DNA from: a virus
Lineage: Duplodnaviria > Caudoviricetes
Virus record (IMG/VR): IMGVR_UViG_3300006867_000026
Location: 1-39,670 of that record
Strand: one strand, 5' to 3'
DNA length: 39,670 nt
Shown one piece after another: positions 11,948 through 34,378 of this stretch (position 1 is its first letter; the number at the start of each line of letters is the position of its first letter). The notes beneath the pieces are model-generated. The model did not search any database. It was not told the origin of the DNA and saw only the letters and a program-made list of their open reading frames with translations. A program made the position numbers and the translations under genes.

Positions 11948-11989
11948 GATTGCAACAAACCAAAAAAACCTAACACCACAGTGCCGCAA

Positions 11990-12409: not shown

Positions 12410-12436
12410 TGTATAATTTATTGAAAATCAATTCAT

Positions 12437-13563: not shown

Positions 13564-14928
13564 ATGGCTTTTGGAATTACTGGGGCATATAGCGATGCTG
13601 ATAGCCCATCACAAGGAGTAGTACGCCGCGCAACGATTGATAAATACAGCGCGCTAGGAGACTACATCGATGAAATCAACAAACCGGATAACCGTGAGTT
13701 GTTGGTAAAGACATTCGGTGATCAAGGTATCACCGGTTTCTTGAAATTAACTGGAGCTGTTAAGGCTGCAGGTACTAACGATCAAGTACAATGGTGGGAA
13801 GAAACTCGTTTACACCCAATCCAGTCTTACACTGTTGCTGGTTCTGCAATCACTGCAGCAAAGTCTCAGACTGTAACACTAGGTTCTAACGACACTTATG
13901 TTCGTGTAGGAGATATCGTATTGTTGGCTGGTGGTGAGCGTGCTTACGTTTCTGCTGTAACAGCTGGTACGTCTTTCGTAATCAAGAACTTGTTAGACGC
14001 TAACTTACCACAAATCGCTATCGGTTCTGGTAAAATAGCTATCGTTGGTAACTTGTACGCACAAGGTACTGACCAGCCAGGTGAGTTCTTCGAGAGCAAC
14101 GTTACTAAGCGTACAAACGACTACATGATCTTGAAAGAGACTTACAAAGTTTCTGGTTCTCAAGCAACCAACATTGGTTGGATTAACTTGGGTAACGGGG
14201 ATTACCGTTGGTACTTGAAAAACGAAGGCGACACTCGTCAGCGTTTCATGGACAAGCGTGAAATGATGATGTTGTTGGGTCAGAAAGTAACTTCTACAGA
14301 TTCTGCATTGAGCGGTATCTCTGGTTCTGAAGGTTACTTCGCTGCTATCGCTGACCGTGGTATCAACGTATCTGGTGGTGCTATGACTGCATTGAGCGAT
14401 TTCGATTCTTTGATTAAAGAATTCGACAAGCAAGGTGCTAACGCTGAGTACGCTCTATACGTAAACCGCGACCAAGACTTGGCTATCGACGACATGTTGG
14501 CTGCTGCAGGTCACACTGCTGCTGGTGGTACTACTACTGGTTTGGCTGCTAACTTCGGTGCATTCAACAACGATTCAGACATGGCTGTACAGCTAGGTTT
14601 CAAATCATTCACTCGTGGTGGATACACTTTCCACAAGCACGACTGGAAATTGTTGAACGACCCACAGTTGTTAGGAGACGCAAAAGAGTTCGTTGGTGCT
14701 GCTATTCCACTATCTACAGTAGTAGATGCTAAGAGTGGTGATCGCAACCCATCGTTGGAATTGAACTACAAAGCTTCTAACGGTTACAGCCGTGAGATGG
14801 AGCACTGGATTACTGGTTCTGTGTTAGGTGCTAACACTGACGGTAATGACTTCGCTCAGTTCAACTACCGCTCTGAGGTATGTTTGGTAACGCGTGGTGC
14901 TAACCGTCACGCTTTGATTTCTAAGTAA
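13564..14928 (+). CDS. Major capsid protein
   Basis: 454 aa, after the scaffold and before a strong terminator. Visibly biased codon usage (ggt/gct/aac/ttc) suggests high expression. Motifs QWWEETRLH, YAQGT, SEGYFAAI and C-terminal YRSEVCLVTRGAN resemble Bacteroidota podophage capsids. Confidence 0.8.
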   Translation: MAFGITGAYSDADSPSQGVVRRATIDKYSALGDYIDEINKPDNRELLVKTFGDQGITGFLKLTGAVKAAGTNDQVQWWEETRLHPIQSYTVAGSAITAAKSQTVTLGSNDTYVRVGDIVLLAGGERAYVSAVTAGTSFVIKNLLDANLPQIAIGSGKIAIVGNLYAQGTDQPGEFFESNVTKRTNDYMILKETYKVSGSQATNIGWINLGNGDYRWYLKNEGDTRQRFMDKREMMMLLGQKVTSTDSALSGISGSEGYFAAIADRGINVSGGAMTALSDFDSLIKEFDKQGANAEYALYVNRDQDLAIDDMLAAAGHTAAGGTTTGLAANFGAFNNDSDMAVQLGFKSFTRGGYTFHKHDWKLLNDPQLLGDAKEFVGAAIPLSTVVDAKSGDRNPSLELNYKASNGYSREMEHWITGSVLGANTDGNDFAQFNYRSEVCLVTRGANRHALISK

Positions 14929-16611: not shown

Positions 16612-17438
16612 TGGCTAGAAATTACGTAAACTTAGAGCAGGTAGTTAACGACTTCATTATCACCCTAGATGGTGATGACTTTGTGGCCAATGCTACAGAT
16701 ACGCTGATCCGTACGTTTGCACTTCGTGGCATTCGTGAAATGGGTTTTGATTTATCTCAAAAGCTGCGTTCGTTAAAAATGAAAGTAAACACCGATAATA
16801 ATACGGTAGAGCTACCAGACGATTACGTAGACTTGGTTAAGATTGGTGTGATTGGAGCAGATGGGCTGGTGTATGTTTTTGGTGAAAACCGAAATATGCA
16901 TATTGCTCAAAAGTATAAGGTTACCTCCGGCAGCGACTTGCTTGCAGCCAATGCTATAGATTCTGACTCTGACGGGGTTTTTGACAGAGTAGATGTAACA
17001 GAGAGCGGTCAAGAATATAACGCTCTTAGAGGATACGATTCTTATGTGTTCAGAAATTACTTGTACGAAAACAGTGCGGGTCAGTTGTATGGACTTGGCG
17101 GGGGACAGTATAGCGGTGAGTACCGTATCAATCTAGATCAGAGTCGTATTGAGCTTAGTATCAATGACCACGTAAACACAGTGGTTATGGAGTATGTATG
17201 TGATGAAGCTAGAAGCAGTAACCCTACCGTGCATGTTTTTATGGAAGAAGCGTTGCGTGCGTATATTTACTACAAGCTTATTCAGCACAAGGCAAGCGTG
17301 CCTATGAACGAGAAAATGCGTGCACGCACGGAATACTATAACGAACGCAGGCTAGCTAATTCTAGACTAAAAAGGTTTAACAAAGAAGAAGCACTCAAGG
17401 TTATTCGCAAGAATTCTAAGCAGTCTCCTAAATTATGA
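16611..17438 (+). CDS. Putative second tail ring/tubular protein
   Basis: VELPDDYVDLVKIG motif and C-terminal EEALRAYIYYK helix. Coupled to both neighbours. Confidence 0.6.
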   Translation: MARNYVNLEQVVNDFIITLDGDDFVANATDTLIRTFALRGIREMGFDLSQKLRSLKMKVNTDNNTVELPDDYVDLVKIGVIGADGLVYVFGENRNMHIAQKYKVTSGSDLLAANAIDSDSDGVFDRVDVTESGQEYNALRGYDSYVFRNYLYENSAGQLYGLGGGQYSGEYRINLDQSRIELSINDHVNTVVMEYVCDEARSSNPTVHVFMEEALRAYIYYKLIQHKASVPMNEKMRARTEYYNERRLANSRLKRFNKEEALKVIRKNSKQSPKL

Positions 17439-20400
17439 TAATCAAGAACGTACCACAATACCTCAACAAAGCTTCGGACGAGAAACTTCTCAAGCCGATA
17501 GAGATGTTGGATGCAGAGAACGTGCAGGTTTCATCTGACGATGACGGCAATGCTGGTATCGTTAAGACTATAAAGGGGAATGCTCATGTTGAGCAGAACT
17601 CTTCTGACGAAGTGTACTTTACTCCGGCAAGCCTTAAGGTTATCGGATCTGTCGCTATACCCAAGAAGCAGCAGGTAGTTTATTTTGCAAAAGCAGAGGC
17701 TAATCTTACAAACATAGACCACATTTATGTTTACGATGTAGACTTGAATAAGTATAAAATACTATACCGTGGTAACCAGCTAGGTTTTAACATTGACTCT
17801 TTTGTTGAGTCTAGTGTTGTGTTTAATGGTGACGACGAGGCGATCGTGTATTTTACAGACGGGGTGGGCGAACCCAAAAAGATGAATGTTGATCGTCTTC
17901 TAGCTAATCGTTCTGACATATGGAAGGATGCTGATGGTATTAACTACTACACTGACACAGATAGAGATGAGTTCTTTGCTGTCTGTAAAACCCCACCGCT
18001 AACCCCAATCACGTTTGAGTATACTACAGACACTGCTGTCCAAAGTAACAATGTCACAGACAAAACATTTCAGTTTGCATACCAATACATCTATAAAGAT
18101 GGAGAGGTAAGTGCTGTATCTACGTATTCTAAAATTGCAATTAATCCTAATACATTCGGCACTGGTGTTGTAGAGCCGGAGTTTGAGAGAGAGAATAACA
18201 AGATTGTACTGTCCTACCAGAACGGTGGATCGGAAGTTGAGTCTATTCGATTCCTTGCTCGTCTTGGTGGGACTACAGTCTTTTATAAAATCGGAGAAGT
18301 AAACAATGGTACTGGGGCTAACCCCACCTTTGACTTTACTAATGATGGGATGTTCCCGGCTGTTTCGACAGCAGAGATAGATAAGGTGTATGATAATGTA
18401 CCGCTAAAGGCAAACGCGCAGAGCATATCTGGAAATAGGCTAGTATATGGTGATTACACAGAGGGATACGACAATGTGGCAATTAACGTAGAGTCTTCTA
18501 TCACATATAAAGACGTAGAGAATACCGGAACCATTAATGCTACACTACAATCCATCTCACTAGGAAACGGACCTGCTATCATTATTGACGGTACAAACAT
18601 GGCAGCTAGTTACGGTCAAGGTGCTATCATTAGATTGAAGGTTACATTATCCGGTTCTAGCGGCTCATTTAGAATCAGTAGAGACTCCCCGTCATATTTA
18701 TTTAGCGAGGATTATGTTGTCGGTTCGGACAACGGAAACTACGGATTAGGTCAGTACACTGGTAATCCATCAACCAATAACTATGTAGACATTCCTTATA
18801 ATACAGACAAGGTTCTCAGTGCTACTATCATAGCAGGTTCTGTTATGACGCGTGACGAGATCCTCGACGAGATAGAGACTCAGTTTGCGGCAACATCAAA
18901 CGCTGTTTACGATTACACAAACAACGGTGTTAATTACAATGCCACTGGTGTTGTAACCTCTGTTGGTTCTGGTACACAGTCTTATTCTGTAGGAGATCCA
19001 GTAGAGGTTGGATTAGACTTCCCGGAGATTGAGCTAGCCTTTACTGCTGATTCAGCATACACTGTTACAAACAAAAGAAAAATAGATATAGAGTTTGATG
19101 TACTTAAAGCAAAGGTTCATTATAACTCCGGTATATCAAAGCGCTTAGTGCAAATTGACGGTCATCCACTAAACGATACCAGAACCACAGCTGCTAGTTA
19201 CCTCGGGGTTGCTAACTTTAGATACATATCCACGACTAATGTGACTTTAGCCGTAGATGTCAAGCGTTCTCTAGAGGCAGGTCTTTCTTCGTTTAAGACA
19301 AGCGCAATGCATAATTTTGGTATTGTGTATTATGATGCTAAGGGCCGGGCTTCTTTTGTACAGAAAATTGACGGTGTTTTTGTTGGGGGCTACACCGATT
19401 CCAACCGAAGCACAAGCCTAGGCAGGGTTCAGATAAACTTAAAGATCAAACACAATCCACCTTCTTGGGCAAAGAAGTATCAGATTGTATATGGGGGCAA
19501 TGAAACTTATTCAAAGTTTCTCCAGTACGGGGTTGCCGGTGCTCACTACATTTCAGACCAAGACAGTATATACTTAGACTTGTTCCCTCTAGAAGGAAAG
19601 AATAATTCTTACTCGAAAGACAAAGGTGCAAACCTAGATTATACCTATCAAGACGGAGACATGCTTCGCATTATTTCGTTCCATGATTCCTCACAGAATC
19701 GTGTATATGTTGATGACCAGATATACAACGTCCTTGGCAAAGAGTTGGTGACCGACGCTAGCGAGGTAACTCCAAGTCGTGCGTCTACATATGTTGTGAT
19801 TAGAGATGAAGATTATTCCTCTAAAACGTACAGCAACTTTAACCTAACAAAAGTTAAGGCGGGTAGTGACGACTGGGGTCAGCGTGTTATGGTAGAGATA
19901 GTATCGCCTAACACCGTCAACAACGACACAGTATATTATGAGATAGGTGAAGTATACGATATTACTAGTGGCGCTCATGTTGGAGATATAACTGACGGCG
20001 GATATCCAGTAGTGCAGCTTACTGATGGCGATATTTACTTTAAGCCTCGCGAAGTGCTGGTTGCTCCTTTTGATTCTAGCAGTTCTGAATATGACGAAGA
20101 TGATTATTCTAACTATGAATACGAAACTTTCTACGTGGAGTCTTCTAGTGTCAGCGACTACTTCGACTCAGAGGTTACTTCTCGAGGGCGTCCTCACGCT
20201 ATCAATGAAGATGCAAAGCAGGTTCGTAGACGATCTTCTGTTACGTACTCAGATCCGTACATAGCGGACAGTGCTGTTTTAAGCCTCTCCAGCTTTAACC
20301 CAGCTACTGCTAACTTTAGCGACTTTGAGATTCGTCACGGAAAGATTGACAAGCTTGTTGACCAGACCGATAGACTTTATGTTTTCCAGGAGCACAAGGT

Positions 20401-21529
20401 AGGTATTGTAGGTGTAAACAGAAATATACTAGAGACCCTTACAGACCAGAACGTTGTGGTTTCTAATGTAGTATTTAGTACTCCAAATTATTATGCTGGA
20501 GACTTTGGCTCTAGCGGTTATCCTGCTGCTGTGGTAGAGCGGTTTGGTATGATGTATTTCGTGGATGTAAAAGCGCAGCGAGTGCTTCGCATCTCTCGTG
20601 ACGGCATCACGCCTATTAGCGACCCGAATATGGATTCGTTCTTTGATAAGAAGTTTTCTTCATATTTAACTGAAAGCGGTAAGACAGAGCTTGATATAGT
20701 TGCTGGTTATGATCCAGACAACTCAGAGTATGTGTTAACTAGTAAAGACCGTGGAAGCTACACTGGATTCACCATTGGGTACAGTCACAACAAGAGAGTG
20801 TTCACTTCTTTCTATTCTTTTAAACCAGACTTTTACACCCACATAAATGACAGATTCTTTTCTTTCAAAGTCGTTAGCGTTAGCGGTACGCAACAGTACA
20901 TGTGGGAACATGGTGCTGGCTCAACATACGGCAATTTCTATGGCACAGACTACGACGCAAAGATTTCAATCATTGCAAACGCCAATCCGTCCATGGTTAA
21001 AGCTTTCCAAGCATTATCACTAGAGGGTGATTCCGTGTGGTCTGCTGTGGTGTCTACCTCTAATCAAACCACCAGTATTGCTACTGGGGATTTTGATGAA
21101 AGAGAGCGAGGTTACTACGCTGCTATACCTAGAGATACTAGCGCCTCTACTGCTAATTACATAACGATAGGTATTGTAGACGACGTTACCGGAACAGCGG
21201 TAACCTTTGACAACAAGATTAATAGAATGCCTATACCTTTAGGTGCGGCATTGTATAAGGTTGACGGTAGCTCACTGACTAATCTTAATGCTACGGTGTC
21301 TAGTATTGATAGCTCTAAAAAGCTAACCACCAGTACTGCGCTTACTTCTTCTGAAGAGGGTAAGACTATTGTGGCTAAGCTTTCGGCTAAAGACGAAGGA
21401 GATGTCCTTAGAGATTACTACGCTAAGATTGAACTTACTAACTCTGTACATAACAAGAAGTCTGAGCTGTACGCTGTAAACACAGTGTTTGTAGATAGCC
21501 CTATGCACTCGGCGCTTAGTCAGAGATAA
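17435..21529 (+). CDS. Tail stabilisation / nozzle (muzzle-like, P22 gp10-like) protein, 1364 aa
   Basis: Beta-propeller-like composition with LDAENV, VYFTDGVGEPKKMN, FQFAYQYIYKDGEVS, GNRLVYGDYTEGYD, FGIVYYDAKGR and FTSFYSFKPD. Follows the ring proteins, as in crAss-like tail modules. Confidence 0.7.
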   Translation: MIIKNVPQYLNKASDEKLLKPIEMLDAENVQVSSDDDGNAGIVKTIKGNAHVEQNSSDEVYFTPASLKVIGSVAIPKKQQVVYFAKAEANLTNIDHIYVYDVDLNKYKILYRGNQLGFNIDSFVESSVVFNGDDEAIVYFTDGVGEPKKMNVDRLLANRSDIWKDADGINYYTDTDRDEFFAVCKTPPLTPITFEYTTDTAVQSNNVTDKTFQFAYQYIYKDGEVSAVSTYSKIAINPNTFGTGVVEPEFERENNKIVLSYQNGGSEVESIRFLARLGGTTVFYKIGEVNNGTGANPTFDFTNDGMFPAVSTAEIDKVYDNVPLKANAQSISGNRLVYGDYTEGYDNVAINVESSITYKDVENTGTINATLQSISLGNGPAIIIDGTNMAASYGQGAIIRLKVTLSGSSGSFRISRDSPSYLFSEDYVVGSDNGNYGLGQYTGNPSTNNYVDIPYNTDKVLSATIIAGSVMTRDEILDEIETQFAATSNAVYDYTNNGVNYNATGVVTSVGSGTQSYSVGDPVEVGLDFPEIELAFTADSAYTVTNKRKIDIEFDVLKAKVHYNSGISKRLVQIDGHPLNDTRTTAASYLGVANFRYISTTNVTLAVDVKRSLEAGLSSFKTSAMHNFGIVYYDAKGRASFVQKIDGVFVGGYTDSNRSTSLGRVQINLKIKHNPPSWAKKYQIVYGGNETYSKFLQYGVAGAHYISDQDSIYLDLFPLEGKNNSYSKDKGANLDYTYQDGDMLRIISFHDSSQNRVYVDDQIYNVLGKELVTDASEVTPSRASTYVVIRDEDYSSKTYSNFNLTKVKAGSDDWGQRVMVEIVSPNTVNNDTVYYEIGEVYDITSGAHVGDITDGGYPVVQLTDGDIYFKPREVLVAPFDSSSSEYDEDDYSNYEYETFYVESSSVSDYFDSEVTSRGRPHAINEDAKQVRRRSSVTYSDPYIADSAVLSLSSFNPATANFSDFEIRHGKIDKLVDQTDRLYVFQEHKVGIVGVNRNILETLTDQNVVVSNVVFSTPNYYAGDFGSSGYPAAVVERFGMMYFVDVKAQRVLRISRDGITPISDPNMDSFFDKKFSSYLTESGKTELDIVAGYDPDNSEYVLTSKDRGSYTGFTIGYSHNKRVFTSFYSFKPDFYTHINDRFFSFKVVSVSGTQQYMWEHGAGSTYGNFYGTDYDAKISIIANANPSMVKAFQALSLEGDSVWSAVVSTSNQTTSIATGDFDERERGYYAAIPRDTSASTANYITIGIVDDVTGTAVTFDNKINRMPIPLGAALYKVDGSSLTNLNATVSSIDSSKKLTTSTALTSSEEGKTIVAKLSAKDEGDVLRDYYAKIELTNSVHNKKSELYAVNTVFVDSPMHSALSQR

Positions 21530-21558: not shown

Positions 21559-22365
21559 ATGATAGATCCAGTAACGGGAATGCTTATAGTCCAAGGGGTT
21601 ACAGCCGGAGCGCAATATCTCTCTGGACGTAAGGAGGCTAAAAAAGCAGAGGCAAGAGAAGAGGAGATTCGTTCTGCGGGTATTCCTAAAATGGAAACCC
21701 CACAAGAATACTTTGATCTCTACATGAAGGCCAAAGAAAACAAAGGGGCTCAGCTTGCTACAGCGCAGGCTCAGCAAGGTATGGCTGATACCGCTGCTGC
21801 TTTGCAGGCCGGTGGTTCGCGTGCGTTAATCGGTGGTCTATCAGCGGCTCAGCGTAGAACAGACACAACAATTGCAGGTATTGGAGCACAATCTCAGCAA
21901 CAAGAACTGTCTGCCCTTGAAGGTTTGGCTGGCGCTCAGATGCGCACCGGCATGATGAACACTCAGATGGCTGGCCAGGAATACTTTAATGATTTGCAGG
22001 GAGCTCAGATGGCTTATCAGTCTGGAAGACAGATGCAGGCTAGCGCTATTAATAACTTCGCGCAGGCAGGGACTGCGGCTATGGGTGCTTACAGTGATGC
22101 TGATTACATGAAGAAATACGGGGATAGTGGCGTACTTAAGTTCTTCGGGAAACAAGGGATGAAGACTCCGGGTGAGTTTAGTCACGATGAGAATCCTATC
22201 GATCTTGTACGCGATGGTCAGAAAATTGGAGAGGCTACCGGTGGAGAATATATATTTAATCCAGAGCAGTCTAAGAAAATGAAAGCACTTGCTGGTAAAG
22301 AGAAGTCTCCACTAGCAAAATACGTTGTAGGGTTACTTAATAAATTTGATAAGAAAGCAGGATGA
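21559..22365 (+). CDS. Putative internal virion / ejection protein
   Basis: MIDP start, Ala/Gly/Gln-rich helices typical of podophage ejection proteins, and a small C-terminal domain (FSHDENP...GEATGGEYIFNP). Confidence 0.6.
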   Translation: MIDPVTGMLIVQGVTAGAQYLSGRKEAKKAEAREEEIRSAGIPKMETPQEYFDLYMKAKENKGAQLATAQAQQGMADTAAALQAGGSRALIGGLSAAQRRTDTTIAGIGAQSQQQELSALEGLAGAQMRTGMMNTQMAGQEYFNDLQGAQMAYQSGRQMQASAINNFAQAGTAAMGAYSDADYMKKYGDSGVLKFFGKQGMKTPGEFSHDENPIDLVRDGQKIGEATGGEYIFNPEQSKKMKALAGKEKSPLAKYVVGLLNKFDKKAG

Positions 22366-23741
22366 GTTTAATTTCAAAACCACTAGACTACAGTTCTGGA
22401 GCTACTCAAGCTGCTATCCAAGGCATTAGAGGTCAGCTTCAGATGGCGGCAATGGGCGCTGAAGAAGATCGTAGAGAGCGTAAGCGCGCTGAAGCGCAAG
22501 CAGCCTCCTTTGAGAAAAGCATGTCTGCTGCTGAAGGGTCGGTAAATTTCTTACCACCAAAAGCTCAGCAAGTATTCTCCGCCTACCATGACGGTTACAA
22601 GCAAGCCTTGGATGCTTATGAAGAAAACCCATCTCAAGAAAACCTAAACAGTATCAACAGAATTGTTGGTGCTGCAAACACATACTTGAGTCAATACGAG
22701 GGATTGCATAACGCAGACAAAAGCACTTTGCTAACCGGCATGTCCCAGCCAAACAAGTTTGGTATATCAACAGAGACAATGATGGGTGAGTTCGCTATGC
22801 GGCATGGTAACGATTCTGCATATAGCGAGGTTCGTTATGACCCTACTGTTGGTGATGTAGTTGTTAGCGGTGGCGGCATGGTTGGTCTTCGTGCTTCACA
22901 AGACCCTATGTTCAATCCGGACAATGCAATGATATTCCCTTCTAAGGCATCCATACCTAGAATAACCTCTGCTGAAGATTACGGTGGTAGATATGAGTCT
23001 TTATATTACAATCGACCAAGAGGGGAATTTGATAAAACCCTTCGCAATAGAATTGCTACGCAAGAAGAACTTCAGTTCTCAGCGGCAGCGTCATTAGCTG
23101 CTATGGATTACGGTAGCGATCCTCAAGACTTGAGTATAGGTATTGAGAACATCATGTCTGACCCAGAAGAAATGAAGCGAGCTACAGATTTATATGTAGA
23201 TAATGCGTGGAGGCAAGCAAACATTGCTCATCAAAGAAGAAGAGAGCAAGAAAGCACTGGTCTAGACTACAATGGATCGGATGCAGTGACCTTTACTACA
23301 GAGGACTACGACTATACCGCAGGTCAGATGACCACAACAAAAATGTCAGCAGATATTCCTACCTTTGATAAACCAATAAAGGTGTTGATTGAGGCTGATC
23401 CGGGTAACGAAAATACCCCTACTTATCAAAGAGTTGTGCTAGGCGCAGCACAGCTCCCAGATGACGAGGGGATCGTTATAAAAGAAAATGTCGGAACTAC
23501 ATATTATCAAGATCCTAACTCTGGAGAGGTAAGTAATACCCCTCAGCCAGGCTGGGCAGAGATGACTCGTTATGAGAATAGAAGTAGAGTAATCAAACCT
23601 ATTGGTATAGATGGGCGTAAAGAATACGCCGCCTATATGAATGCACTTGAAAAACAAAATGCGTTAAACCAAGAGGCTTCTTTACGGGTGATTAGCACAG
23701 AGCAAAGTGCGCTACCCGGACCACCGATGCCTCCACAATAA
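22362..23741 (+). CDS. Putative internal virion / ejection protein (459 aa)
   Basis: Lies between the ejection-like gene and the giant protein. N-terminal coiled coil. Confidence 0.55.
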   Translation: MSLISKPLDYSSGATQAAIQGIRGQLQMAAMGAEEDRRERKRAEAQAASFEKSMSAAEGSVNFLPPKAQQVFSAYHDGYKQALDAYEENPSQENLNSINRIVGAANTYLSQYEGLHNADKSTLLTGMSQPNKFGISTETMMGEFAMRHGNDSAYSEVRYDPTVGDVVVSGGGMVGLRASQDPMFNPDNAMIFPSKASIPRITSAEDYGGRYESLYYNRPRGEFDKTLRNRIATQEELQFSAAASLAAMDYGSDPQDLSIGIENIMSDPEEMKRATDLYVDNAWRQANIAHQRRREQESTGLDYNGSDAVTFTTEDYDYTAGQMTTTKMSADIPTFDKPIKVLIEADPGNENTPTYQRVVLGAAQLPDDEGIVIKENVGTTYYQDPNSGEVSNTPQPGWAEMTRYENRSRVIKPIGIDGRKEYAAYMNALEKQNALNQEASLRVISTEQSALPGPPMPPQ

Positions 23742-23749: not shown

Positions 23750-26700
23750 ATGAACGACGAGTTACTGCAATTATTGCAGAGTGGGTTTGATAGTGGATAC
23801 AGCGAGGACCGCGTATTTGCTATGGCTATTAAGAATGGGTTTTCCTACAACGAAGTGACGTTGGCCCTAGAGTCTATTAGTAAAAAAAAAGACCAAACTC
23901 AACCTCCTCCCCAGGTTACAGACACTATGGTTTCTGGCTTGGAAGACTCTGGGTTGGATTTATCATACGAGACAAAGGCTGACGGAACGCAGTTTCCAGA
24001 CGACTTATTAACTCAGCGATTTACTCAAAGCTCTGCTCCAAATAATAAACCGCAGGAAACTAACGATAGAGAATACCGTCATGCACTAATCGCTGATGAT
24101 TGGTTCGCTGATAGAGATGATTGGTTCGGTCGTACCGCTAGATGGTACAATAACTTTATGGCTATGGCTCTTGCGACCGGGGCTCAAGAAGATCTCCTAG
24201 ACGAAAGCCCAGAGAACAATGTTGATGCTGCAGAGCGACTGGCTTATTACAACGAAATACAAAACAAATACAGAGACGAGCGAGGGTATCCCGGATGGGG
24301 AGATCTTGGTTCTGCTAGCGGATGGTGGAAGATGGTTTTACCGGAAGTAGCAGGTAACGTTTTTTCATCTATTGCTGGTGGTTTTGCAAGCGGTAGTGCG
24401 CAAGAAACTGTATTAAAAACTATTGCAGAGGGTCAAGCTATAGGAACTAGCGCTGGTCTTGCTGGTGGTCCTCTTGCTGAGTTTACGGTTCCAATAGGTT
24501 ACGTAGCTGGTACAGCATACGGTGCTGCTACCGGTACTTCTTTTGCTGGTTCATACGCCCTTGAAATGTCAGAGGCTATCGCCAAGGCTCTTGAAGACCT
24601 GCATATAGATACAGAAGACCCGGAAGAAATTGCACAGACCTTTGAGTCTGAGGAGGGTTTGAAAAAGATTAGAGAAGCAATGGAGCGCCGTAAGGTACGC
24701 GCTGCTACTATTGCATCTGTAGATGCTCTTCTCGCTGGAGGTGGTGGTAAAACCGCGCAGGCTATTAGAAAAGCTGGAGGTAGTAAAACAAAAGCAGTGG
24801 TCGCTGAGATATTAGTGGATGCCGCTGGAGGTGGTGCTGGTGAAACTGCAGGTCAGATCGTTGAAGAGGGTAAAGTTACCTCGGGTCTTGATATTGTTAT
24901 GGAGGCTCTTGGCGGCCCAGTAATGGCCACGCCTGCTGCTGTAACCCGTGGCGCTAGCGCTAGGTATACAGAGCTGATGACTCCTACTGCAGAGAGAAAC
25001 TATATCCAATGGGCTCAGCAGAACAAAGAAAACGGCAGTAGTATTACTACCGCGGCTTCACTTATGGGTGACGGCCAGGTTCAGATAGTAGAGAAAAAGA
25101 TACAAGAAACAAAAGAGCAGCTTAAGAATGCTAAGGGCAAAGAGGCAAAGCAAACTTTGCGTGATGACCTTAAGCAACTTAGAGAGAAGAAATACGAGAT
25201 GCTCAATGCAAACATTAGAGCATTCGAGGAACTCAATCAAGACCAACAAGTAGAGTTACTCGAGAAGAGTCAAAAGATATTTGCACTCCAGCAGGAGATG
25301 CAGGAGACAACAGACACAAAGCTTAAGTCAAGATTGGGTGCAGAGATCCTCACTATGATGACGGGCTTTAATACGTTTGAAGTAGAGGCTGTAGCCCCAG
25401 CGGTAGAAACTACTACCATGGATCAAATGCAGGCTCCGGTTATGCCAACAACAGATGCTAAGCCTATCGTCGAAGGGCGCTCTGAGGTTGACGCCTTAAC
25501 TATCAACACACTAGAAGATGGAACTGAGGTTATTGCTCAGCGTCCTATCGATGGAACAGAGGTGCAAGGCGCTCTCCGCTTGGAGGGTAACCCAGAAAAC
25601 CCTACACTGGTAGTTGAGACTGAAACAGAAAAAGTAGAACTCGGGCAGCGTAGTGAGGTAGACCCGTCTACAATCAGAATGTTTGAGCCGGCTATTGCTG
25701 AGCGTGAGACACTAGCGGTGCAGGAAGATGGATCGTTTGTTTATCAACGTGATGACAACCCTAACGTACCGCAAGGAACAAAGCTTACTATTGATGAAGA
25801 GGCTGGCGTTAGCGCTATCTCTGTATTTGGCGAAGGCCAATTCAATCCACTACAAACACCAGAGGCAATTGCTGGTGACGCAGACAGAGGTGTCCGTGTA
25901 CAAATGAAAAACGAAAGCGGTGAGGTTGTTGAGCTCTACGGCCAAGACGCATTGGATGCTGCATATCAAATACTGCTGGCAGCCAAAGAGAACCCTGCAG
26001 ATAGAGCAAAAGTTAACCAAGTAATTGAGAACAATGAAGCAGCAAGACAAGCCCTTGAACAAGCCGAACGTGAGTTCGCAGAAGAAGGATCTGTACCAGA
26101 GACTGATGGACCTACCACAGAGCAAGCGCAACCAAGTGTTGGCCCAGCTCCTCGCCCAGCCGAAAGAGTAGCCCCGGGTGCTGCTGAAGAGGCAGCGTCA
26201 GAAACGGAGAAGACTAGAGAGGCCGTTAACGAACTAGACGATTCCGTTGAGGTTCGTGGTGGCGCAGTAAATCCAAGACGCCACGGTGTAACCCCACGTA
26301 TTGCAAGCATGCTTAACAGCGCGTATAATGCATTCGTTGGTTTATATACAGAAGCTCCTCGTGTTATTATCCATAAAACAAAAGAGTCGTTGCAGCGTGC
26401 TACCGGAGGCCCGTACGAAGCTTTCTATGAACATGAAAGAGAGGGTGGCCCAGCTATACACGTTATGTATAATGCGACTACCGCTGCTATACGTGAAGAG
26501 TTTGCGCACGCAGGACTTCGTCACGTCATGGTACTCCAGCCTGCTGTTCGTACAAAATTGTTTAACGACCTGCAAGGCATTAACAATGAAACACTTCGCA
26601 ATAAAATCAATGAGCGCTTCCGTAAGTACGTAGCGTTCTATATGGAGCGTGGTGCTTCTGAGGCAAAGGCTGTTGCCATCGCTGAAGAGGAGGCTATTGT

Positions 26701-29700
26701 CGGTATCATTGCAGACATCAACGACAACCTTAATCAGATTGACGCTAGTGCTAAGGCTAAGACTAGACGTGTTATCAACAAGATGCTCGGCACTAAGCTT
26801 GGCAAGTTCCACCTAAAGAGCAACAACGATTTAGTCAATATGATCGAGCGTGTTACGCAGGGATACAGAACTGGTAATAAGATATACATATTAGACATTG
26901 TTAGAAACGCACAGCCAAATCCAAATCCGAACCCGGCAGAGGCAATGCGTACTGAGTCTGACCCTACATCAGATGACCGTGCTCGATTGATTGACTTTGC
27001 GTTTGACCGTGACCTCGATTTGTCCGACATGAAGAAGTTGGGTAGCGGTGCTTTTGGTTATGCCTTCATGGTTAAAGATAAGGATGGGCGAGACGTTGTC
27101 CTTAAGCAGGCACAGAGCGTTGACGAGATGTACATTGCTTCAAACTACTTTGATAGATTTGGTGGTAAGCTACCGGGCCTTGCTCAGTACTACGATGTAG
27201 CAATTGCTTCCGATGTAGATGGAGTGCCGTTTATATACCAACTCAAAGAGTATTTACCGACATCAATGACAGACGTTGTTGGTAGAGATGGCGTCACTTC
27301 TCAGCTTAACATTGGCGCTGTAATCGGAGACCTTGAGAACATTGCTGAATCATTAAACAGAAACTTCCCTTACTCCGGTGCTTTAGGTCCTAGTAGAGGG
27401 ATTAGTAAAATCCAGCATCAAGCCATGATCGAAAACATGACCGTGGCGAAACAACTTTACCAAGCTCTTAAGGCTGCTAGACTTGAGTCAATCAATGATT
27501 CAGAGAGAACTGCTGGTTCTGGTTTTGTAGAGTTGAGACTGTCTAATCTAAAGGCAGTGTTTAGTCCTATACTAAATTCAAGAGAGCTTAACATAGAAAT
27601 GAACACATACAAATACTTGTATGAACATTTGTTTGGTTTAGACTACTACGCTGACGACCGTTTGGTTTTAAAGCCGGATGTCACTAGAGCTGAGTTATCT
27701 GCCTCACTTTTGCGTAAGCATGTAGTAAAGAGTTTAGTTACTGATATCGCTGACGGTTTGTTTAATTGGGCGTCTGTTGGTACTGCTACTTTAGAGTCGC
27801 TTCAAACAAAGGCTAGGCTCTTGGGTGAGGCCAGTCCTAGCAGCTTAGAGCGTTACGAGATAAGACAAGAATCTTTAGAAGATCTAGAGCAAAACCACCC
27901 CGGTTCGCTAGAGAAGATATCTAAATTGTACGACAACAATGAAATGATATTCACTCTAATAGACAACGCTATCCGTGCTGCTTTTGACGTCGAAGGCTTT
28001 ACCGCTGAAGAAGTGATAGATGTTTCGATGGCTTATCTCGATAACCAGGTGGCAATGAGTAAGAGTCTTGGGCAGTTGGGCTTGAGATCAGCAGACCTTC
28101 ACCCTGGCAACGTAGGGTTCGCAGCTATCAACTCCGAGAATAAGATTGAAAGATTCTCTTCTGTCAAGTTCTTTGATATCATGGGCCCGATATATGAGGG
28201 CGTAGAGCGAGGAGGGAATTTCCCGGTTACAGAGATTGATGCGTTTATAGCCAGGGATTTCAAGGAGTTTGTTAATGAAGGTAACAGAAGACTTAAAGAT
28301 GCTGCCGCTGATATGGATTACTACACCAGTTTCGGTGAGGAAGACTTTGCGGCACGCACATATTACAATCACATAGGTGTTGGTGTTATACCTCCTATCA
28401 CCATCAAGGCTATACTAGATGCAGAACCGGAAATGTCTATAGGCGAAAGCAACCTGGGGTATGATGGTACTGCACATCCTAAATCTAGAGAAGCTCTTAA
28501 GCACATAGCAAAGACCATTGGTCTTGTTAAACTGATGCATAAGAATCCAGACTACAAGTTAATGAGGGTTCTGCAAAACGAGTTGTTTAAAGTAGATGGT
28601 GCTCTGGGTGTTACCAAAGTAGACACTCAACAGCGTGACGACATATACTTCTTTAACGAGCAGGTACAGACAGCTTTCCATGATGTGCTCCAAGAGTATC
28701 AGCGTGAGGCTATGCTTGATCCTAGTGAGCGTTCAACTGTAGACAGTGGCAACCGTGCTCGTATTGAAGAGTACCTTCTTGCCGAGAGTATTGAATTTAA
28801 GGCGATCGAAGAGATTGGCTCTGGTGCTTTTGGCAAAGCATTTATTGTTAACACCCCAGACGGAAACGTCGTTGTTAAAAGAACCGCAAGCAAGAGAGAG
28901 ACCTACATTAGTTCAAGATATATCAAGCGCCATAACGGTAAGCTTCCTGGGCTTGTTAAGTATCACGCGATGAGGGCGATGTTCCTGGACGCCGCAAACG
29001 ATTGGATGGGCAGCGGTGTGATATTTGTCACAAAAGATTTATCAAACACAACTGTTGACAAGTACGGTTCTAGTTATGATATTTCGGTAGGCGATGTCTT
29101 CGGACAGATTACACTGGCTGTTAATAGTGTATACGATAAGTCAACAGAGCTGCTAGGTAATGTAGATCCTGGACCAGGTGTGCGTAACGGTATAGATTTA
29201 CATACCGCGCAAAATACCGCGCTGGCTTTAATGCAGGTCTATCAAGACCCATACAAGGTTGCAGAGATTAATAAGTATATTGAAGATGAGCTTCCGGGAA
29301 TCATGCTTCGTGGAGACAATTCCCCTAACACTGTAACTCAAGAAGTTATTGACGGGTCTATGACCCTTGAAGATATCATTGGTTATGCTGTTAACTTCTG
29401 GCAGATGGCAGGGTCGTTTACTTTATTAGGCGCCGCCAATCCAGATATACACAGCGCTAATCTAGGTTTCTCAAAAGAAGAGAAAACATTAAATGGATAC
29501 CCCTTACTTGAAGCATTTGATGTTGACGGGTTTGAGAACAACATGATGCTCAACAGCCGCCAGGCACAAGAGGACCATCAAACTTTCATGAATGAGATAA
29601 CAGACGAGACAAAAGCTGCATTCATTCCTGGGTATCAAGACAAGCAATACTTCTTCTTTGGGCAACCGTTTTCTCAGTTGAATCCAGTGGGGCTTGTTGG

Positions 29701-32700
29701 TGAGGAGGCTGCTAAGTTTAGAGAAGAGAACAAAGATGAGATAGTAATGGAGACCGCTATCCCAGCTCAAGTTCCAATCACCACCATGCAGGACGTCATG
29801 TACGATCAAGAAGAGGCTGAGTACACAGCAGGAGACATCATTGAAGAACTTCGATTGCCTCGAGACGACGAATCTCCTTACAGTAATAAGGACCCGTATT
29901 CAGATATACTTAGACAGTACGATTACGGATACACAATCCCATACCTTGACGGTACAGAATTGTTTAGAGATTTCCGTAGACAAGAAGACGGAAGCACGGC
30001 AGACTTTAGAGCTGGAGAGATAGCGGAACTGCTTACCAAGAACATAGATCAGTATGCTCTTAGTGATATGATTGAAAGGATGAATGAGCCTATGTTCCAA
30101 GCAACCTATTCAAGTCGATTCAAGGATATCTTTGAGACCAGAGAAAAACAAAGAGCAAGCTTGGTTTCTGCCTTGAAGTCTAAGCTCGACTACATGGAGA
30201 ATGGAAACCGCGCTCGACTAGATGACGAGACCGTTGAGTTAGCGGTATCTAAAATCAGCGGCGGCAAGCGCGTGTCTCCTGCTCGTGCTACATCTGCTGG
30301 TTCAGATGTCAAGCTTAACTATGACGGGTCGAGACAAATCTCTATGGACTACACCAGAGAGAACGCTCCAGCTGTATATGTTCGTGGCGCTTTCGTATTG
30401 GGTACACACACAATGATGTCTGACATCAAGGGTACTAAAGCTTTAGATACTAAGAACCCTACAGAGGCTCAACTGAAAAAGGCTGACGAGATCTACGAGA
30501 TATTCGTTGAGCGCGCAACCAAGAACCTTATTAGACTTCACGATTCTTTCAGTGAAGATGTGAGAAAATATTCTAAGCTCTGGTATGTTGGTGCTAACCT
30601 TACCGCTCAAGACATGGGCGCAAGATATGGGTACTCTCAAGAGCAAGCCGCCGGTATCCTAGCGGCTCTGTCTCCGCAGAAAGATTGGTATCAGAACATG
30701 GCGCTAGCTGAAGCGGTGATGCGCGTGATGCGCAATCAGAAAGATACAGAGTTTTCTAAGGCTATGTATAACAAAGCCCTTGGTAATACACGTAAGGTAA
30801 ACAACAAGGTGCTTAGCCAGCAAGACTTTAAGAAAGCGGTAAACGAAAAAGCATACCAAGCTTACCTCAAGAGAAAGGCTGTGTTGCAGAGCATGATAGG
30901 CAAGACTTTAGGCGAGATGAGTCTCGAGGAAAACGGAGCTATGAACGCTGCTATGTTTGTCCGTACATACAACGAGATGTTTGAGGATCGCAACTACCAC
31001 GTGGTAAGTCCTATTGGTGAGCGTATTGGTTATGCTAAGAAAGCAGATGGGTCTATGTCCACTATGGCATGGGGTTCTTATGCTGAGATTTCTTCAGCAA
31101 CATCTATTGTGTTGAACGGTACTATGTCAAACATCGACAAGCAGGTTGGTGACCAACACAAGGTGCGTTCATTCTTCAACAATATCAATAACCCTAACTC
31201 TTTGGAGGGTGATGTTACGATTGACACTCACGCTGTTGCGGCTGCAGAGCTACTACCTTTAGCAGGGTCTAGCTCAGAGGTGTTCCACAACTTCGGCGGT
31301 GGTACTGCTGCTATGAAAGTCAAAGCTGGTAGTTCAAACCTCGGCATCAAGGGTGTGTACTTTGCGTATGCAGAGGCATACCGTAGAGCAGCAGACGAGA
31401 AAGGTATACTTGCAAGAGAGATGCAGTCTATCACATGGGAAGCTGTACGTACTTTGTTTACCGCAGGCTTCAAGGCTCAGAAGAAAAACAAGCAAGAGGT
31501 TCGTGCCATCTGGCAAGAGTATAGCAAGGGTAACATTAGCTTTGAAGAAGCTCAAGACCAGGTGTTTGAAAGAGCCGGCGGTGTGTTCAACCCGGACTGG
31601 TATGTAGACAGCGGCGATCGCGCAAGGCTAGATGAAACTAGAGAGAGACGTCACGCTCGCAAGATGTTCCAGAACCTACGACCAGATGTTCCTTTCGAGG
31701 CAGCCGTTCGTGAAGAACTTAAGAGAGACCCTTCTAGATTCTATGAACCTCAAAAGTTTAGCGAGATCAAAGAGCGTCTAGAAGAGATGAGTATTGAGGA
31801 GCTCCTTGCTGAGATGAAAGACGTTGCTATGTTTGACGGAGATAACCCCTCTGTTATCAATGACGCAATGGGTTCTTTAGCCGGAGGAGACTTCCGTGTT
31901 CTAGCAACACTTGAGTACCTCAAGAGACTGCAGCAGCAGGGGCGTACTTCTGAGTACCGTGCTGTTCTGAAAAGGTTCTTTGAAACTGGTACAGCTGTCG
32001 GTCAATTGTTACGACAGTTCGGTGAAATAAAAGGCCAGACTCCAGAGGGAATGAAAGACCTGGTTGACAGTGTGTACGAAGCAAACGGCACTACTCTCTC
32101 TGATACAGAGTACGAAGAGATGGGTGCTATTGTTGATGATTTGTTTGATGGTCAGCAAGATGTTCAAGCATTGATCAAAGAGCTTTCGGAAACCACAGAC
32201 ATGGACCGTGTTGGAGAGATTGAGGGAAGATTAGAGGACGCTAAACGCAGAGTGTCTGAGGCTAACAAACGATTGAATGAATTCAATAGCAAGTATGCTA
32301 TGACATGGGGTAAACTAATTGGTTTACTTATCCAAGGTAACCTTCTTACTCCGGTGTCGCAGATGGTCAACGTTACCGCCAACCTTTCTACGCTACCTAT
32401 CCTAATGCTAGACAAGACTCTTGGGTATGGCGCTGAGGTTTTGATTAACGGTATCCGCAAGAGCATGGGGAAAGATGTTGACCCTAGTATAGCATCATTA
32501 CCACCTTCTATAACTGCAGCAATCTACGCTGGTAAACAGTTTGGTGTTGGTATTAAAGACGCATACAAGAGTGCTATTGGAGAGACTGTACCTAACGATA
32601 AGTTTGAGTACAACATGCAGCTTCAGCTGGCGCCCATCAAAGCATTCGGTTTGATAATGGCGAACAGCGACAAGCTTCCGGACGCTGTGAAGAACGGTAC

Positions 32701-34378
32701 TAAATTAGATCAGATTGATTACCGTGCTAAGAAATTCCTAGAGGCAGTTGGTGGTACACCAGCAAACCTTATGTTCAGACTGCTGGCGTTTGGTGATGTG
32801 CCGTTCTTTAAATTCATGGAGGGATACGAACTATACAGAGTCGGTAAGTCTTTAGGGCTTAGTGGTGATGAGTTAAATAGATTCTTGAAGTATCCAAATG
32901 AAGAGTACAGAAACAAGGCAACACAAGCAGGTCTAAAGGTTACGTTCCAAGAGGATAACCAGTTTGCTACATGGTTGAATAAGGCTATAACAAGAACCGC
33001 TGATTTAATCGGGGAGCGCAGTCGTGTATTAGAGAATGCTTTCCGTGTTGTGGTGCGTATGCACATGCCGTACGTTAAGACTCCGGCTAACATCCTCGCT
33101 CAAAGTATTCAGCTAGCACACCCTGCTATACCTATTGCTACCATTGCTATCAAGAAAGCAGCAAGAGGGAGAGTATCTCAGCGCGAGCTTGCCGAGTTGT
33201 TGTCGAAAGCATTCATGAGCTGGCTGATGTATAAAGCCACACAGCGATTGATGGAAAGCGGATTGATTACTACTCCGGTAGATGCTGACGTTGCAAGAGA
33301 AAGAGATTTGAAATACTCGGTCGCTCCACCCAACTCGATCAACATCACCGGTATCAATAGACTATTGAAAGGTGAAGACCCTACACTTCAAGCGAATGAT
33401 GTATGGTTTAACTATCAGAAGCTTGGTCTTGGTGGTGCGGTAATGGCAGCCCAGGCAGTAGGCTTGAAGTCCACAATGCGTGATGCGCAGATGGAGTCTA
33501 GAGTACTTAACCGCTCGGACAACTTCATGGATTACCTTGCAGATTTAACGGGTGTTGTTCCTGGGGTGTTAGGTTCTATGATGAACCAGTCTTTCCTTAC
33601 TGGTATTGACGGTATCATTAAGCTTCTTGCTGACCCAAGCGAGCGCCAGCTCACTAAGTACCTTGAGAACATTTCGCGTTCTGGTTTCTCTGTGATTCTC
33701 CCGAACTCACTCAGCGCATTCTACCGCTCTGGTCGTGAGTATCTTCCGGACTACAGACATCCTAACGCAGACTTCTTCAACGTGCTTGACAACATCTTGC
33801 GTGATAAGACATTCAACTACCTGGGTACTGGCGAGCAGGTCATACCTCGTGTGAATATTTGGGGTGAGTCAATCACGCAAACTCCAGAGGGTGGTGGCTC
33901 ATTGATGATCGGTGATGGAGATGAGTACCCTTGGTTGTACAATACCTTCGGTGTATTCAAATCTAGAATCAGTTCTACTGACCCGGTAAAGGTTGAGATA
34001 TACAACTTGTTCAAAGAGACCGGTGACACTGATGTGATCCCTGGATATCCTATGCCGGTGGGTAAGTTAAAGATTCAACTCACCAAGAGTGAATCAGCTT
34101 ACTATGGATTGAATGTAAACGAACCGCACTACATTGACGTGATGCCTAAAGATGCGCATGCTATGATGAAGATGTTCGGTACATACAGATACAATGAGAT
34201 TAAGAAGTTTGTTTCAAGCGACTCTTACGAGCGAATGACAAACGCACAAAAGATTAGTGCTTTGAAATCTATTTACAATAGAAATTCTAGAGGCACATAC
34301 GATGGCGGTATCTATCCATGGAAAGCATACCGTGATGGAATGGTTAGAAATTATTTTTTAGATTTAGGAGATGAGTAA
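23750..34378 (+). CDS. Giant multidomain (polyvalent) virion protein, 3542 aa: Gly-rich membrane segment, zincin-like domain, two kinase-fold domains, HhH-glycosylase-like domain, C-terminal helical domain
   Basis: Uninterrupted ORF and last of three ejection-type genes. Motifs: EEFAH...EEEA; GSGAFG...VVLK...DLHPGN...FFD; GSGAFG...VVVK...DIHSAN...AFD; WY...AALSPQKDW...KVRSFFNNI...VTIDTHA...QSITW; PYVKTPANI. Confidence 0.8.
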   Translation: MNDELLQLLQSGFDSGYSEDRVFAMAIKNGFSYNEVTLALESISKKKDQTQPPPQVTDTMVSGLEDSGLDLSYETKADGTQFPDDLLTQRFTQSSAPNNKPQETNDREYRHALIADDWFADRDDWFGRTARWYNNFMAMALATGAQEDLLDESPENNVDAAERLAYYNEIQNKYRDERGYPGWGDLGSASGWWKMVLPEVAGNVFSSIAGGFASGSAQETVLKTIAEGQAIGTSAGLAGGPLAEFTVPIGYVAGTAYGAATGTSFAGSYALEMSEAIAKALEDLHIDTEDPEEIAQTFESEEGLKKIREAMERRKVRAATIASVDALLAGGGGKTAQAIRKAGGSKTKAVVAEILVDAAGGGAGETAGQIVEEGKVTSGLDIVMEALGGPVMATPAAVTRGASARYTELMTPTAERNYIQWAQQNKENGSSITTAASLMGDGQVQIVEKKIQETKEQLKNAKGKEAKQTLRDDLKQLREKKYEMLNANIRAFEELNQDQQVELLEKSQKIFALQQEMQETTDTKLKSRLGAEILTMMTGFNTFEVEAVAPAVETTTMDQMQAPVMPTTDAKPIVEGRSEVDALTINTLEDGTEVIAQRPIDGTEVQGALRLEGNPENPTLVVETETEKVELGQRSEVDPSTIRMFEPAIAERETLAVQEDGSFVYQRDDNPNVPQGTKLTIDEEAGVSAISVFGEGQFNPLQTPEAIAGDADRGVRVQMKNESGEVVELYGQDALDAAYQILLAAKENPADRAKVNQVIENNEAARQALEQAEREFAEEGSVPETDGPTTEQAQPSVGPAPRPAERVAPGAAEEAASETEKTREAVNELDDSVEVRGGAVNPRRHGVTPRIASMLNSAYNAFVGLYTEAPRVIIHKTKESLQRATGGPYEAFYEHEREGGPAIHVMYNATTAAIREEFAHAGLRHVMVLQPAVRTKLFNDLQGINNETLRNKINERFRKYVAFYMERGASEAKAVAIAEEEAIVGIIADINDNLNQIDASAKAKTRRVINKMLGTKLGKFHLKSNNDLVNMIERVTQGYRTGNKIYILDIVRNAQPNPNPNPAEAMRTESDPTSDDRARLIDFAFDRDLDLSDMKKLGSGAFGYAFMVKDKDGRDVVLKQAQSVDEMYIASNYFDRFGGKLPGLAQYYDVAIASDVDGVPFIYQLKEYLPTSMTDVVGRDGVTSQLNIGAVIGDLENIAESLNRNFPYSGALGPSRGISKIQHQAMIENMTVAKQLYQALKAARLESINDSERTAGSGFVELRLSNLKAVFSPILNSRELNIEMNTYKYLYEHLFGLDYYADDRLVLKPDVTRAELSASLLRKHVVKSLVTDIADGLFNWASVGTATLESLQTKARLLGEASPSSLERYEIRQESLEDLEQNHPGSLEKISKLYDNNEMIFTLIDNAIRAAFDVEGFTAEEVIDVSMAYLDNQVAMSKSLGQLGLRSADLHPGNVGFAAINSENKIERFSSVKFFDIMGPIYEGVERGGNFPVTEIDAFIARDFKEFVNEGNRRLKDAAADMDYYTSFGEEDFAARTYYNHIGVGVIPPITIKAILDAEPEMSIGESNLGYDGTAHPKSREALKHIAKTIGLVKLMHKNPDYKLMRVLQNELFKVDGALGVTKVDTQQRDDIYFFNEQVQTAFHDVLQEYQREAMLDPSERSTVDSGNRARIEEYLLAESIEFKAIEEIGSGAFGKAFIVNTPDGNVVVKRTASKRETYISSRYIKRHNGKLPGLVKYHAMRAMFLDAANDWMGSGVIFVTKDLSNTTVDKYGSSYDISVGDVFGQITLAVNSVYDKSTELLGNVDPGPGVRNGIDLHTAQNTALALMQVYQDPYKVAEINKYIEDELPGIMLRGDNSPNTVTQEVIDGSMTLEDIIGYAVNFWQMAGSFTLLGAANPDIHSANLGFSKEEKTLNGYPLLEAFDVDGFENNMMLNSRQAQEDHQTFMNEITDETKAAFIPGYQDKQYFFFGQPFSQLNPVGLVGEEAAKFREENKDEIVMETAIPAQVPITTMQDVMYDQEEAEYTAGDIIEELRLPRDDESPYSNKDPYSDILRQYDYGYTIPYLDGTELFRDFRRQEDGSTADFRAGEIAELLTKNIDQYALSDMIERMNEPMFQATYSSRFKDIFETREKQRASLVSALKSKLDYMENGNRARLDDETVELAVSKISGGKRVSPARATSAGSDVKLNYDGSRQISMDYTRENAPAVYVRGAFVLGTHTMMSDIKGTKALDTKNPTEAQLKKADEIYEIFVERATKNLIRLHDSFSEDVRKYSKLWYVGANLTAQDMGARYGYSQEQAAGILAALSPQKDWYQNMALAEAVMRVMRNQKDTEFSKAMYNKALGNTRKVNNKVLSQQDFKKAVNEKAYQAYLKRKAVLQSMIGKTLGEMSLEENGAMNAAMFVRTYNEMFEDRNYHVVSPIGERIGYAKKADGSMSTMAWGSYAEISSATSIVLNGTMSNIDKQVGDQHKVRSFFNNINNPNSLEGDVTIDTHAVAAAELLPLAGSSSEVFHNFGGGTAAMKVKAGSSNLGIKGVYFAYAEAYRRAADEKGILAREMQSITWEAVRTLFTAGFKAQKKNKQEVRAIWQEYSKGNISFEEAQDQVFERAGGVFNPDWYVDSGDRARLDETRERRHARKMFQNLRPDVPFEAAVREELKRDPSRFYEPQKFSEIKERLEEMSIEELLAEMKDVAMFDGDNPSVINDAMGSLAGGDFRVLATLEYLKRLQQQGRTSEYRAVLKRFFETGTAVGQLLRQFGEIKGQTPEGMKDLVDSVYEANGTTLSDTEYEEMGAIVDDLFDGQQDVQALIKELSETTDMDRVGEIEGRLEDAKRRVSEANKRLNEFNSKYAMTWGKLIGLLIQGNLLTPVSQMVNVTANLSTLPILMLDKTLGYGAEVLINGIRKSMGKDVDPSIASLPPSITAAIYAGKQFGVGIKDAYKSAIGETVPNDKFEYNMQLQLAPIKAFGLIMANSDKLPDAVKNGTKLDQIDYRAKKFLEAVGGTPANLMFRLLAFGDVPFFKFMEGYELYRVGKSLGLSGDELNRFLKYPNEEYRNKATQAGLKVTFQEDNQFATWLNKAITRTADLIGERSRVLENAFRVVVRMHMPYVKTPANILAQSIQLAHPAIPIATIAIKKAARGRVSQRELAELLSKAFMSWLMYKATQRLMESGLITTPVDADVARERDLKYSVAPPNSINITGINRLLKGEDPTLQANDVWFNYQKLGLGGAVMAAQAVGLKSTMRDAQMESRVLNRSDNFMDYLADLTGVVPGVLGSMMNQSFLTGIDGIIKLLADPSERQLTKYLENISRSGFSVILPNSLSAFYRSGREYLPDYRHPNADFFNVLDNILRDKTFNYLGTGEQVIPRVNIWGESITQTPEGGGSLMIGDGDEYPWLYNTFGVFKSRISSTDPVKVEIYNLFKETGDTDVIPGYPMPVGKLKIQLTKSESAYYGLNVNEPHYIDVMPKDAHAMMKMFGTYRYNEIKKFVSSDSYERMTNAQKISALKSIYNRNSRGTYDGGIYPWKAYRDGMVRNYFLDLGDE
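27020..28190 (+). other. Protein-kinase-like domain 1 within the giant protein
   Basis: G-loop GSGAFG at 27041-27058, beta3 Lys at 27104, helix-C Glu in SVDEMY, catalytic loop DLHPGN at 28094-28111, Mg-binding Asp (FFD) at 28175. Confidence 0.75.
28790..29535 (+). other. Protein-kinase-like domain 2 within the giant protein
   Basis: GSGAFG at 28817-28834, VVVK, SKRETY, DIHSAN at 29444-29461, then EAFDVDG. Confidence 0.75.
30560..31600 (+). other. HhH-GPD glycosylase-like domain (DUF7178-like, from memory) within the giant protein
   Basis: LWY, AALSPQKDW at 30662-30688, KVRSFFNNI, VTIDTHA at 31214-31234 (compare EndoIII VDTH) and MQSITW. Confidence 0.55.

Follow-up and report, generated by a model that had tools for sequence, protein, structure and literature searches.

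A short peptide of the form [DG][DN]RAR[LI], hereafter the junction word, recurs at each of the four joints that follow the zincin-like domain in a giant phage protein, is held at the protein level and bounds modules that are exchanged among relatives. The protein, of 3,542 aa, is encoded on the plus strand at 23750..34378 of the window, i.e. the whole stretch of 39,670 nucleotides that was analysed. Since the word is found at four module joints, and since relatives have their own versions of it at such joints, it likely marks cut sites for a predicted built-in metal protease; that the protein's own predicted zincin would indeed cut there, into separate modules, is given an even chance on the sequence evidence presented below.

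The giant protein, its genomic setting and its modules

Among the large genes of the virion operon, the giant gene comes last, as read from ORF calls, synteny and the polyvalent domains found in relatives of its product (LPD3, LPD23, ART-PolyVal and RadC), and judging from operon position and these domains it probably encodes an ejection protein. Directly upstream, after the muzzle gene, lie two smaller genes on the same strand (268 and 459 aa, 21559..23741), which by their position likely encode other ejection proteins. The muzzle protein itself (17435..21529, plus strand) is of crassvirus type (Pfam crAss_MUZ, E 8.7e-25), which points to a short-tailed virion. The order muzzle, two small genes and giant gene is also that of phi38:1 and elemo, where the counterparts in the same operon slot, gp101 in the case of phi38:1, are annotated in the records as 'structural protein'. 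For the major capsid candidate (13564-14928) there are matches in 85 phage records, the majority from Flavobacterium elemo and Cellulophaga phages, phi38:1 among them, with 32-34% identity to phage records among the 25 matches listed; Calle, which is congeneric with phi38:1, is podoviral (PMC8776804). The phage is phi38:1/Elemovirus-like, with marine flavobacteria as likely hosts. The synteny with phi38:1 and elemo, together with the likeness to phage N4 (PMC13434306), suggests that the giant protein is packaged and ejected.

Elsewhere in the window, two genes (8698-9645 and 11291-11914) encode proteins in which [EY]EDGG/YEEGG-like stretches precede D-P-K-K-like words, possibly internal head proteins, and the gene of this pair that encodes 315 aa with a basic N-terminus matches 'minor head protein and DNA pilot' profiles. 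Three small adjoining genes at 9626-10665, two of them hydrophobic with similar starts (WYSDSEPNEI and WKYSDSQPTEI), possibly form a membrane or lysis cassette, separate from the holin at 34371.

Along the chain, the giant protein consists of an N-terminal region, a zincin-like domain, two kinase-like modules, a DUF7178 module and a conserved C-terminal domain, with DUF7178 as the sole named family in Pfam and PHROG scans. Like other polyvalent proteins, it thus joins unrelated predicted enzyme domains (zincin-like, two kinase-like and HhH-glycosylase-like) in one phage polypeptide, and the domain architecture varies among relatives, known polyvalent domains included. Sequence searches of the PDB returned nothing significant, and at E<=0.001 Foldseek gave no match for either of the two structure models, of which that of aa 2101-2817 has a mean pLDDT of 66 and that of aa 826-1717 is poor (mean 46.7). 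The N-terminal region (aa 1-857, 23750..26320, plus strand) has no family match in the Pfam and PHROG scans; it is 72-95% identical among close relatives and, judged by eye, bears Gly/Ala-rich hydrophobic stretches that may serve a membrane or ejection role. The C-terminal domain (about 915 aa, 31631..34378, plus strand) is common to the whole family, with 632 relatives at E<=0.001, and has neither a Pfam or PHROG family match nor a solved-structure match; tblastn against cultured phages found nothing for it.

The zincin-like domain (aa 858-1049, 26321..26896, plus strand) contains E916-E917-x-x-H920 (26495-26509) and a downstream E980 (26687-26689). The latter corresponds to the downstream glutamate ligand of MPTase domains, while the motif reads EEFAH in place of their HExxH helix, for which reason the domain is named zincin-like rather than a canonical zincin. 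Among proteins of at least 1,200 aa, an iterated profile of aa 860-1050 gathered about 60 domains in which [EH]ExxH is followed further on by a conserved E; most are EExxH as in the window protein, HExxH being a minority, and the second E and the H of the motif are retained across all of them, the E980 column being conserved as well. In a model of moderate confidence (pLDDT about 55-76), strands at model positions 46-50, 66-69 and 77-81 are followed by helices. The domain has no family match and is absent among the fold matches listed in a wide fold search; via P0020 there is a weak match (E 7e-5) to the HExxH domain encoded by a cultured elemo phage, and the literature search returned no metalloprotease paper for EExxH. 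In the relative L007, which shares a contig with L016, two overlapping ORFs (2623-4842 and 4580-12736) make up the giant gene, with a frame change near aa 922, directly after the EExxH motif, which may be an assembly error or a real frameshift.

Kinase-like module 1 (26990..28729, plus strand; GSGAFG, VVLKQ, DLHPGN and FFDIMG) and kinase-like module 2 (28766..30184, plus strand; GSGAFG, VVVKR, DIHSAN and AFDVDG) match each other and are paralogues. Both display, as read from sequence, the features expected of APH and ePK kinases, namely a Gly-rich loop, a Lys/Glu pair, D-x-x-x-x-N and a Mg-binding D. For module 1 only, the N-lobe has fold matches to APH and protein kinases (Z 6-7, up to 6.9, rmsd 4-5); the kinase C-lobe model lies below pLDDT 50, and the Pfam and PHROG scans returned no kinase match for module 1. 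Identity to P0007 amounts to 26% for module 1, which is fast evolving, and 39% for module 2, as against 72-78% for the other parts of the protein. The middle of module 1 even falls to 0-5% identity with P0007, and both modules (26990-30184) diverge far faster than the remainder, which suggests host-driven selection. A search for stand-alone relatives of module 2 retrieved one protein, itself a fragment of the same gene.

The DUF7178 module (30221..31612, plus strand; core about aa 2172-2619; Pfam PF23802, E 1.8e-25) has a putative HhH-glycosylase-like fold, its best fold matches being the queuine-salvage protein DUF2419 (Z 8.7, rmsd 4.5, 217 aligned) and an 8-oxoG glycosylase (Z 7.8), among many glycosylase-family matches with Z of 5.7-8.7, values that are middling for a helical model. 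DUF7178 is also present in 1012 shorter proteins.

The junction word in the giant protein and its relatives

The first-pass annotation had reported four copies of the peptide with their coordinates and codons, all of which are correct: DDRARL (word 1, aa 1075, 26972..26989) before kinase-like module 1, GNRARI (word 2, aa 1667, 28748..28765) before kinase-like module 2, GNRARL (word 3, aa 2152, 30203..30220) at the start of a stretch with pLDDT<50, and GDRARL (word 4, aa 2622, 31613..31630) three residues past the DUF7178 core and likewise within a pLDDT<50 stretch, all on the plus strand. The QPNPNPNP linker described ahead of word 1 is present too (26912..26935, plus strand), again within a pLDDT<50 stretch. 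The four words hold all four RAR triplets of the protein, and no further [DN]RAR[LI] turned up when the window was scanned in all six frames; the N-terminal region has no copy. From composition, 0.002 occurrences of the six-residue pattern and 0.135 of RAR[LI] are expected, and in a shuffle control, which is post hoc, any 5-mer (I=L, N=D) reached four copies in 5 of 2000 cases, so that a chance origin of the fourfold word is rejected. The idea that the gene merely contains a repeated DNA segment is likewise rejected, since silent positions vary among the four copies. The constraint was said to lie on the peptide, and this holds, since codons vary between copies and drift synonymously between orthologues while the residues stay. 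As words 1 and 2 open paralogous kinase-like modules, only three of the four sites are independent. The suggestion that the words leave one module per piece holds except for the first piece, which has two parts, the N-terminal region and the zincin-like domain.

That the word marks module boundaries, as proposed in the same annotation, is borne out by alignments, fold models and DUF7178 proteins elsewhere. In the model of aa 2101-2817, word 3 is coil and word 4 is drawn as a helix start in a low-confidence stretch, both outside the confident core; in the poor model of aa 826-1717, words 1 and 2 form the first turn of the N-terminal helix of each kinase-like module, after low-confidence linkers, and solved kinases align from about word 1. 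Words 1 and 2 hence do not appear as open linker in the model. In seven to eight shorter proteins and in gp40 of Roseobacter phage CRP-738, the DUF7178 module covers what corresponds to about aa 2172-2619, and the word is absent. That the word is inherent to DUF7178 is rejected on this ground: words 3 and 4 flank the module from outside, and the word belongs to the chassis rather than to the module. CRP-738 gp40 (L084:4819-7326), whose gene adjoins the portal gene, is a fusion of a methyltransferase-like module with DUF7178, i.e. the same module types as in P0008, with neither zincin motif nor junction word.

Among close relatives, with identities as low as about 63%, the word is found at every junction contained in a translated ORF (16 loci; L008 covers no junction, and the ORFs of L009 and L010 are too short to include). 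Exchange of cargo between conserved ends, another point of the first reading, is seen in P0008 and P0017, where a methyltransferase-like module (Pfam E 0.0045, below the cut-off) occupies the first slot instead of kinase 1 and the junction word is kept. The expectation that RAR[LI] persists while cargo varies is right as to the cargo, but the literal RAR[LI] is restricted to close relatives, the distant ones having a word of their own. In the clade of eight members to which the window protein belongs, unrelated joints alter their word in step, from four copies of [DN]RAR[LI] in P0001/P0007 to four of [GA]R[AST]R[LMK] in P0008/P0017, three of G[MVL]AR[IL] in P0009/P0018 and three of GRA[NSA][IL] in P0010/P0019.

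This agreement between joints extends to the wider family. Among 48 proteins (nine near-duplicates dropped), the likeness of first to last junction is 18.33 within proteins vs. 16.48+-0.38 across proteins, a value reached in 0 of 20,000 permutations, with 9 of the 48 passing singly. A matrix trained on last junctions scored 3.35 on the first junctions of 29 EExxH proteins, vs. 2.21+-0.32 when shuffled (0/1000), and it also surpassed random windows in these proteins (0/1000). The same anchored matrix did not predict first junctions in nine HExxH proteins, and a matrix built for HExxH failed. Motif discovery free of anchoring gave no signal in the 29 EExxH proteins, where it locked on domain-start motifs, and worked for the nine HExxH proteins. 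In an alignment of 28 relatives, R[AS][SA] piles up between conserved blocks in four bins with 14, 13, 10 and 17 sequences; two lesser piles hold 6 and 4, and another bin, with 10, corresponds to the start of the C-terminal domain itself.

Regarding the type of zincin, R[AS][SAR] precedes the C-terminal domain in 16 of 28 EExxH proteins, 0 of 8 HExxH proteins and 4 of 38 zincin-less ones (1.9 by shuffle), and F[SA]h in 5 of 8 HExxH proteins, 0 of 28 EExxH and 0 of 38 zincin-less ones, bearing in mind that both patterns were picked after viewing the junctions and that kin are not independent. In the zincin-less relatives, the word is thus at chance level; these proteins are mostly cargo-less too and kin share traits, so that such counts cannot separate an effect of the protease from one of the cargo. 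The zincin can also be replaced: P0013, P0025 and close kin lie inside the RAS clade by C-terminal tree, yet have another, HExxH zincin together with an h-F-Q word, and this zincin is shared with the distant P0015, which uses h-F-Q too. Where the zincin block is replaced, the type of word thus goes with it. In P0138, P0152, P0153 and P0156, the zincin directly adjoins the C-terminal domain, with FQN at the single joint in P0138 and P0153.

Proposed cleavage by the resident zincin and other readings of the word

If the words are cut sites, the giant protein would be packed whole in the virion and then ejected or threaded into the host, the N-terminal region anchoring the chain at the membrane. 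The refolded zincin, with E916, H920 and E980 as presumed metal ligands and E917 as general base, would then cut at or beside each word, probably after threading into the host, and the two kinase-like modules and the HhH-glycosylase-like module would be freed to act on host targets. In the course of evolution, a swapped-in module would be kept if it came to stand behind a word readable by the resident protease. When the zincin was modelled in complex with the peptide of junction 3, the score was 0.59 vs. 0.45 for the control, which speaks neither for nor against cutting. Against cutting weigh N4 vRNAP, which stays whole despite its HExxH domain, the fused module pair of CRP-738 gp40 and the helical modelling of words 1, 2 and 4; the first metal ligand being E, not H, and the zincin having neither a fold nor a family match, also count against it. 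More tentatively, and at somewhat less than an even chance, these proteins may represent self-cutting polyproteins with a lineage-specific code, in which EExxH enzymes would read R-A-[RSA] and HExxH variants F-S-h-D or h-F-Q, word and enzyme changing together and words bounding the cassettes that are gained or lost.

The in-step change and the position at module starts would be explained equally well by a non-proteolytic docking, pause or refolding mark read in tail threading, with the chain remaining whole like N4 vRNAP and with the zincin-like domain possibly acting as a reader that binds without cutting. Such a mark, although considered improbable, is in keeping with the non-canonical EExxH site and with N4 vRNAP as beads on a string with uncut linkers (PMC13434306). 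A threading or export signal, the alternative offered in the first-pass annotation, keeps some probability in the same way. A mark of this kind accounts poorly for the retention of the putative general-base E and later ligands across about 60 zincins. Moreover, the N-terminal region would be threaded too, yet has no word, and in the HExxH group FS-h-[DES] is concentrated in the cargo, with 31 occurrences in 12,319 residues vs. 1 among the 6,342 residues of the N-terminal part and none among the 6,870 of the C-terminal part.

Gains and losses of modules end on the word, most clearly in the five proteins of the FSxD clade, where 34 of 40 cargo alignment ends lie at most 15 aa from a word (5.2 expected), or 16 of 22 if each distinct end is counted once; for the clade of the window protein the effect is weak, with 20 of 114 alignment ends on the word (9.5 expected), or 9 of 54 distinct ones. 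Besides, P0076 is devoid of a block that lies between two words in L067, where five of the six word copies start with TTC/TTT TCT and two adjacent copies share TCT GTA GAC GAA. Such observations would suit a word arising as a by-product of module shuffling, through duplicated leaders or short DNA homology, and kept as a helix cap with no reader at all, as would the origin of copies 1 and 2 in the kinase duplication and the modelling of words at helix starts. This origin appears more doubtful still than a threading mark: the silent differences between the window copies and the synonymous drift between orthologues with residues staying both speak against it, words 3 and 4 precede unrelated sequence, and an in-step residue change at three non-homologous joints is hard to conceive without a common reader. 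Least probable of all, the word would be the cleavage site of another protease, either a phage maturation protease encoded outside the window or a host one; the boundary evidence is the same for it and the protease scan was limited to the window, but none of the 18 other window proteins matches a protease family (Pfam, PHROG), no other window protein bears the word, and replacement of the zincin block goes along with another type of word.

Comparison with known systems

Autoproteolysis of polyvalent proteins by their own metallopeptidase is not a new idea: in a study of phage-type polyvalent proteins, it was proposed for MPTase domains, with the processed DdrB of phage P1 cited (Iyer et al. 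2017, PMC5512222; DdrB in section 8). Sections 6 and 8 of that paper mention neither a recognition sequence nor a junction word that is repeated, a point on which its FTP supplements may bear, and literature searches outside subscription papers found no description of such words. The substrate of the polyvalent-protein metallopeptidase has been a question since 2017, for which exact candidate sites are now offered; together with zincin pairs that have different words, they open the way to a simple assay. If true, cleavage at the word would account for the way in which enzymes on a membrane-threaded chain reach their targets, would provide a rule by which giant phage proteins, in their thousands, could be divided into modules, and would add an EExxH type of metallopeptidase.

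As in the class delineated in the sections of Iyer et al. (2017) referred to above, the giant protein combines unrelated enzymes in one phage protein around a zincin-like hub, with kinases in Bacteroidetes phages; it departs from that class in its EExxH zincin and in chassis domains that match no Pfam family. DdrB of P1 and gp47 of phi24B compare with the giant protein as virion proteins with a metallopeptidase domain, with no repeated site described for them in the portions of the sources available; gp47 is found in virions and was proposed as an ejection protein, its peptidase being proposed to act on peptidoglycan (bioRxiv 10.64898/2026.04.10.717836). A parallel in overall build is the vRNAP (gp50) of coliphage N4, an ejection protein of about 3,500 aa accompanied by two smaller ones, with an N-terminal membrane region, a HExxH domain and inter-module linkers (PMC13434306). 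Unlike the giant protein, N4 vRNAP carries a polymerase, and there is no sequence match between the two; it is described as packaged unprocessed in spite of the HExxH domain (PMC5512222, section 8) and was studied at full length, with no cleavage mentioned in the accessible part of that work (PMC13434306).

Among cultured flavobacterial phages, gp101 of phi38:1 is half the size of the giant protein, inspection by eye showed neither a zincin motif nor cargo in it, and, as in phanotate88 of the cultured Flavobacterium phage elemoE_6-9C (L082:30691-41335, annotated as a structural protein), its C-terminal domain is not detectably related to that of the giant protein. Phanotate88 itself has a HExxH zincin and cargo modules in common with P0013 and P0020, the shared module has FQ at its start in each of the two proteins, and R-x-Q at its module starts is a candidate word, too short for significance alone. 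With a HExxH zincin and cargo shared with the family, this elemo giant protein may offer a cultured test system.
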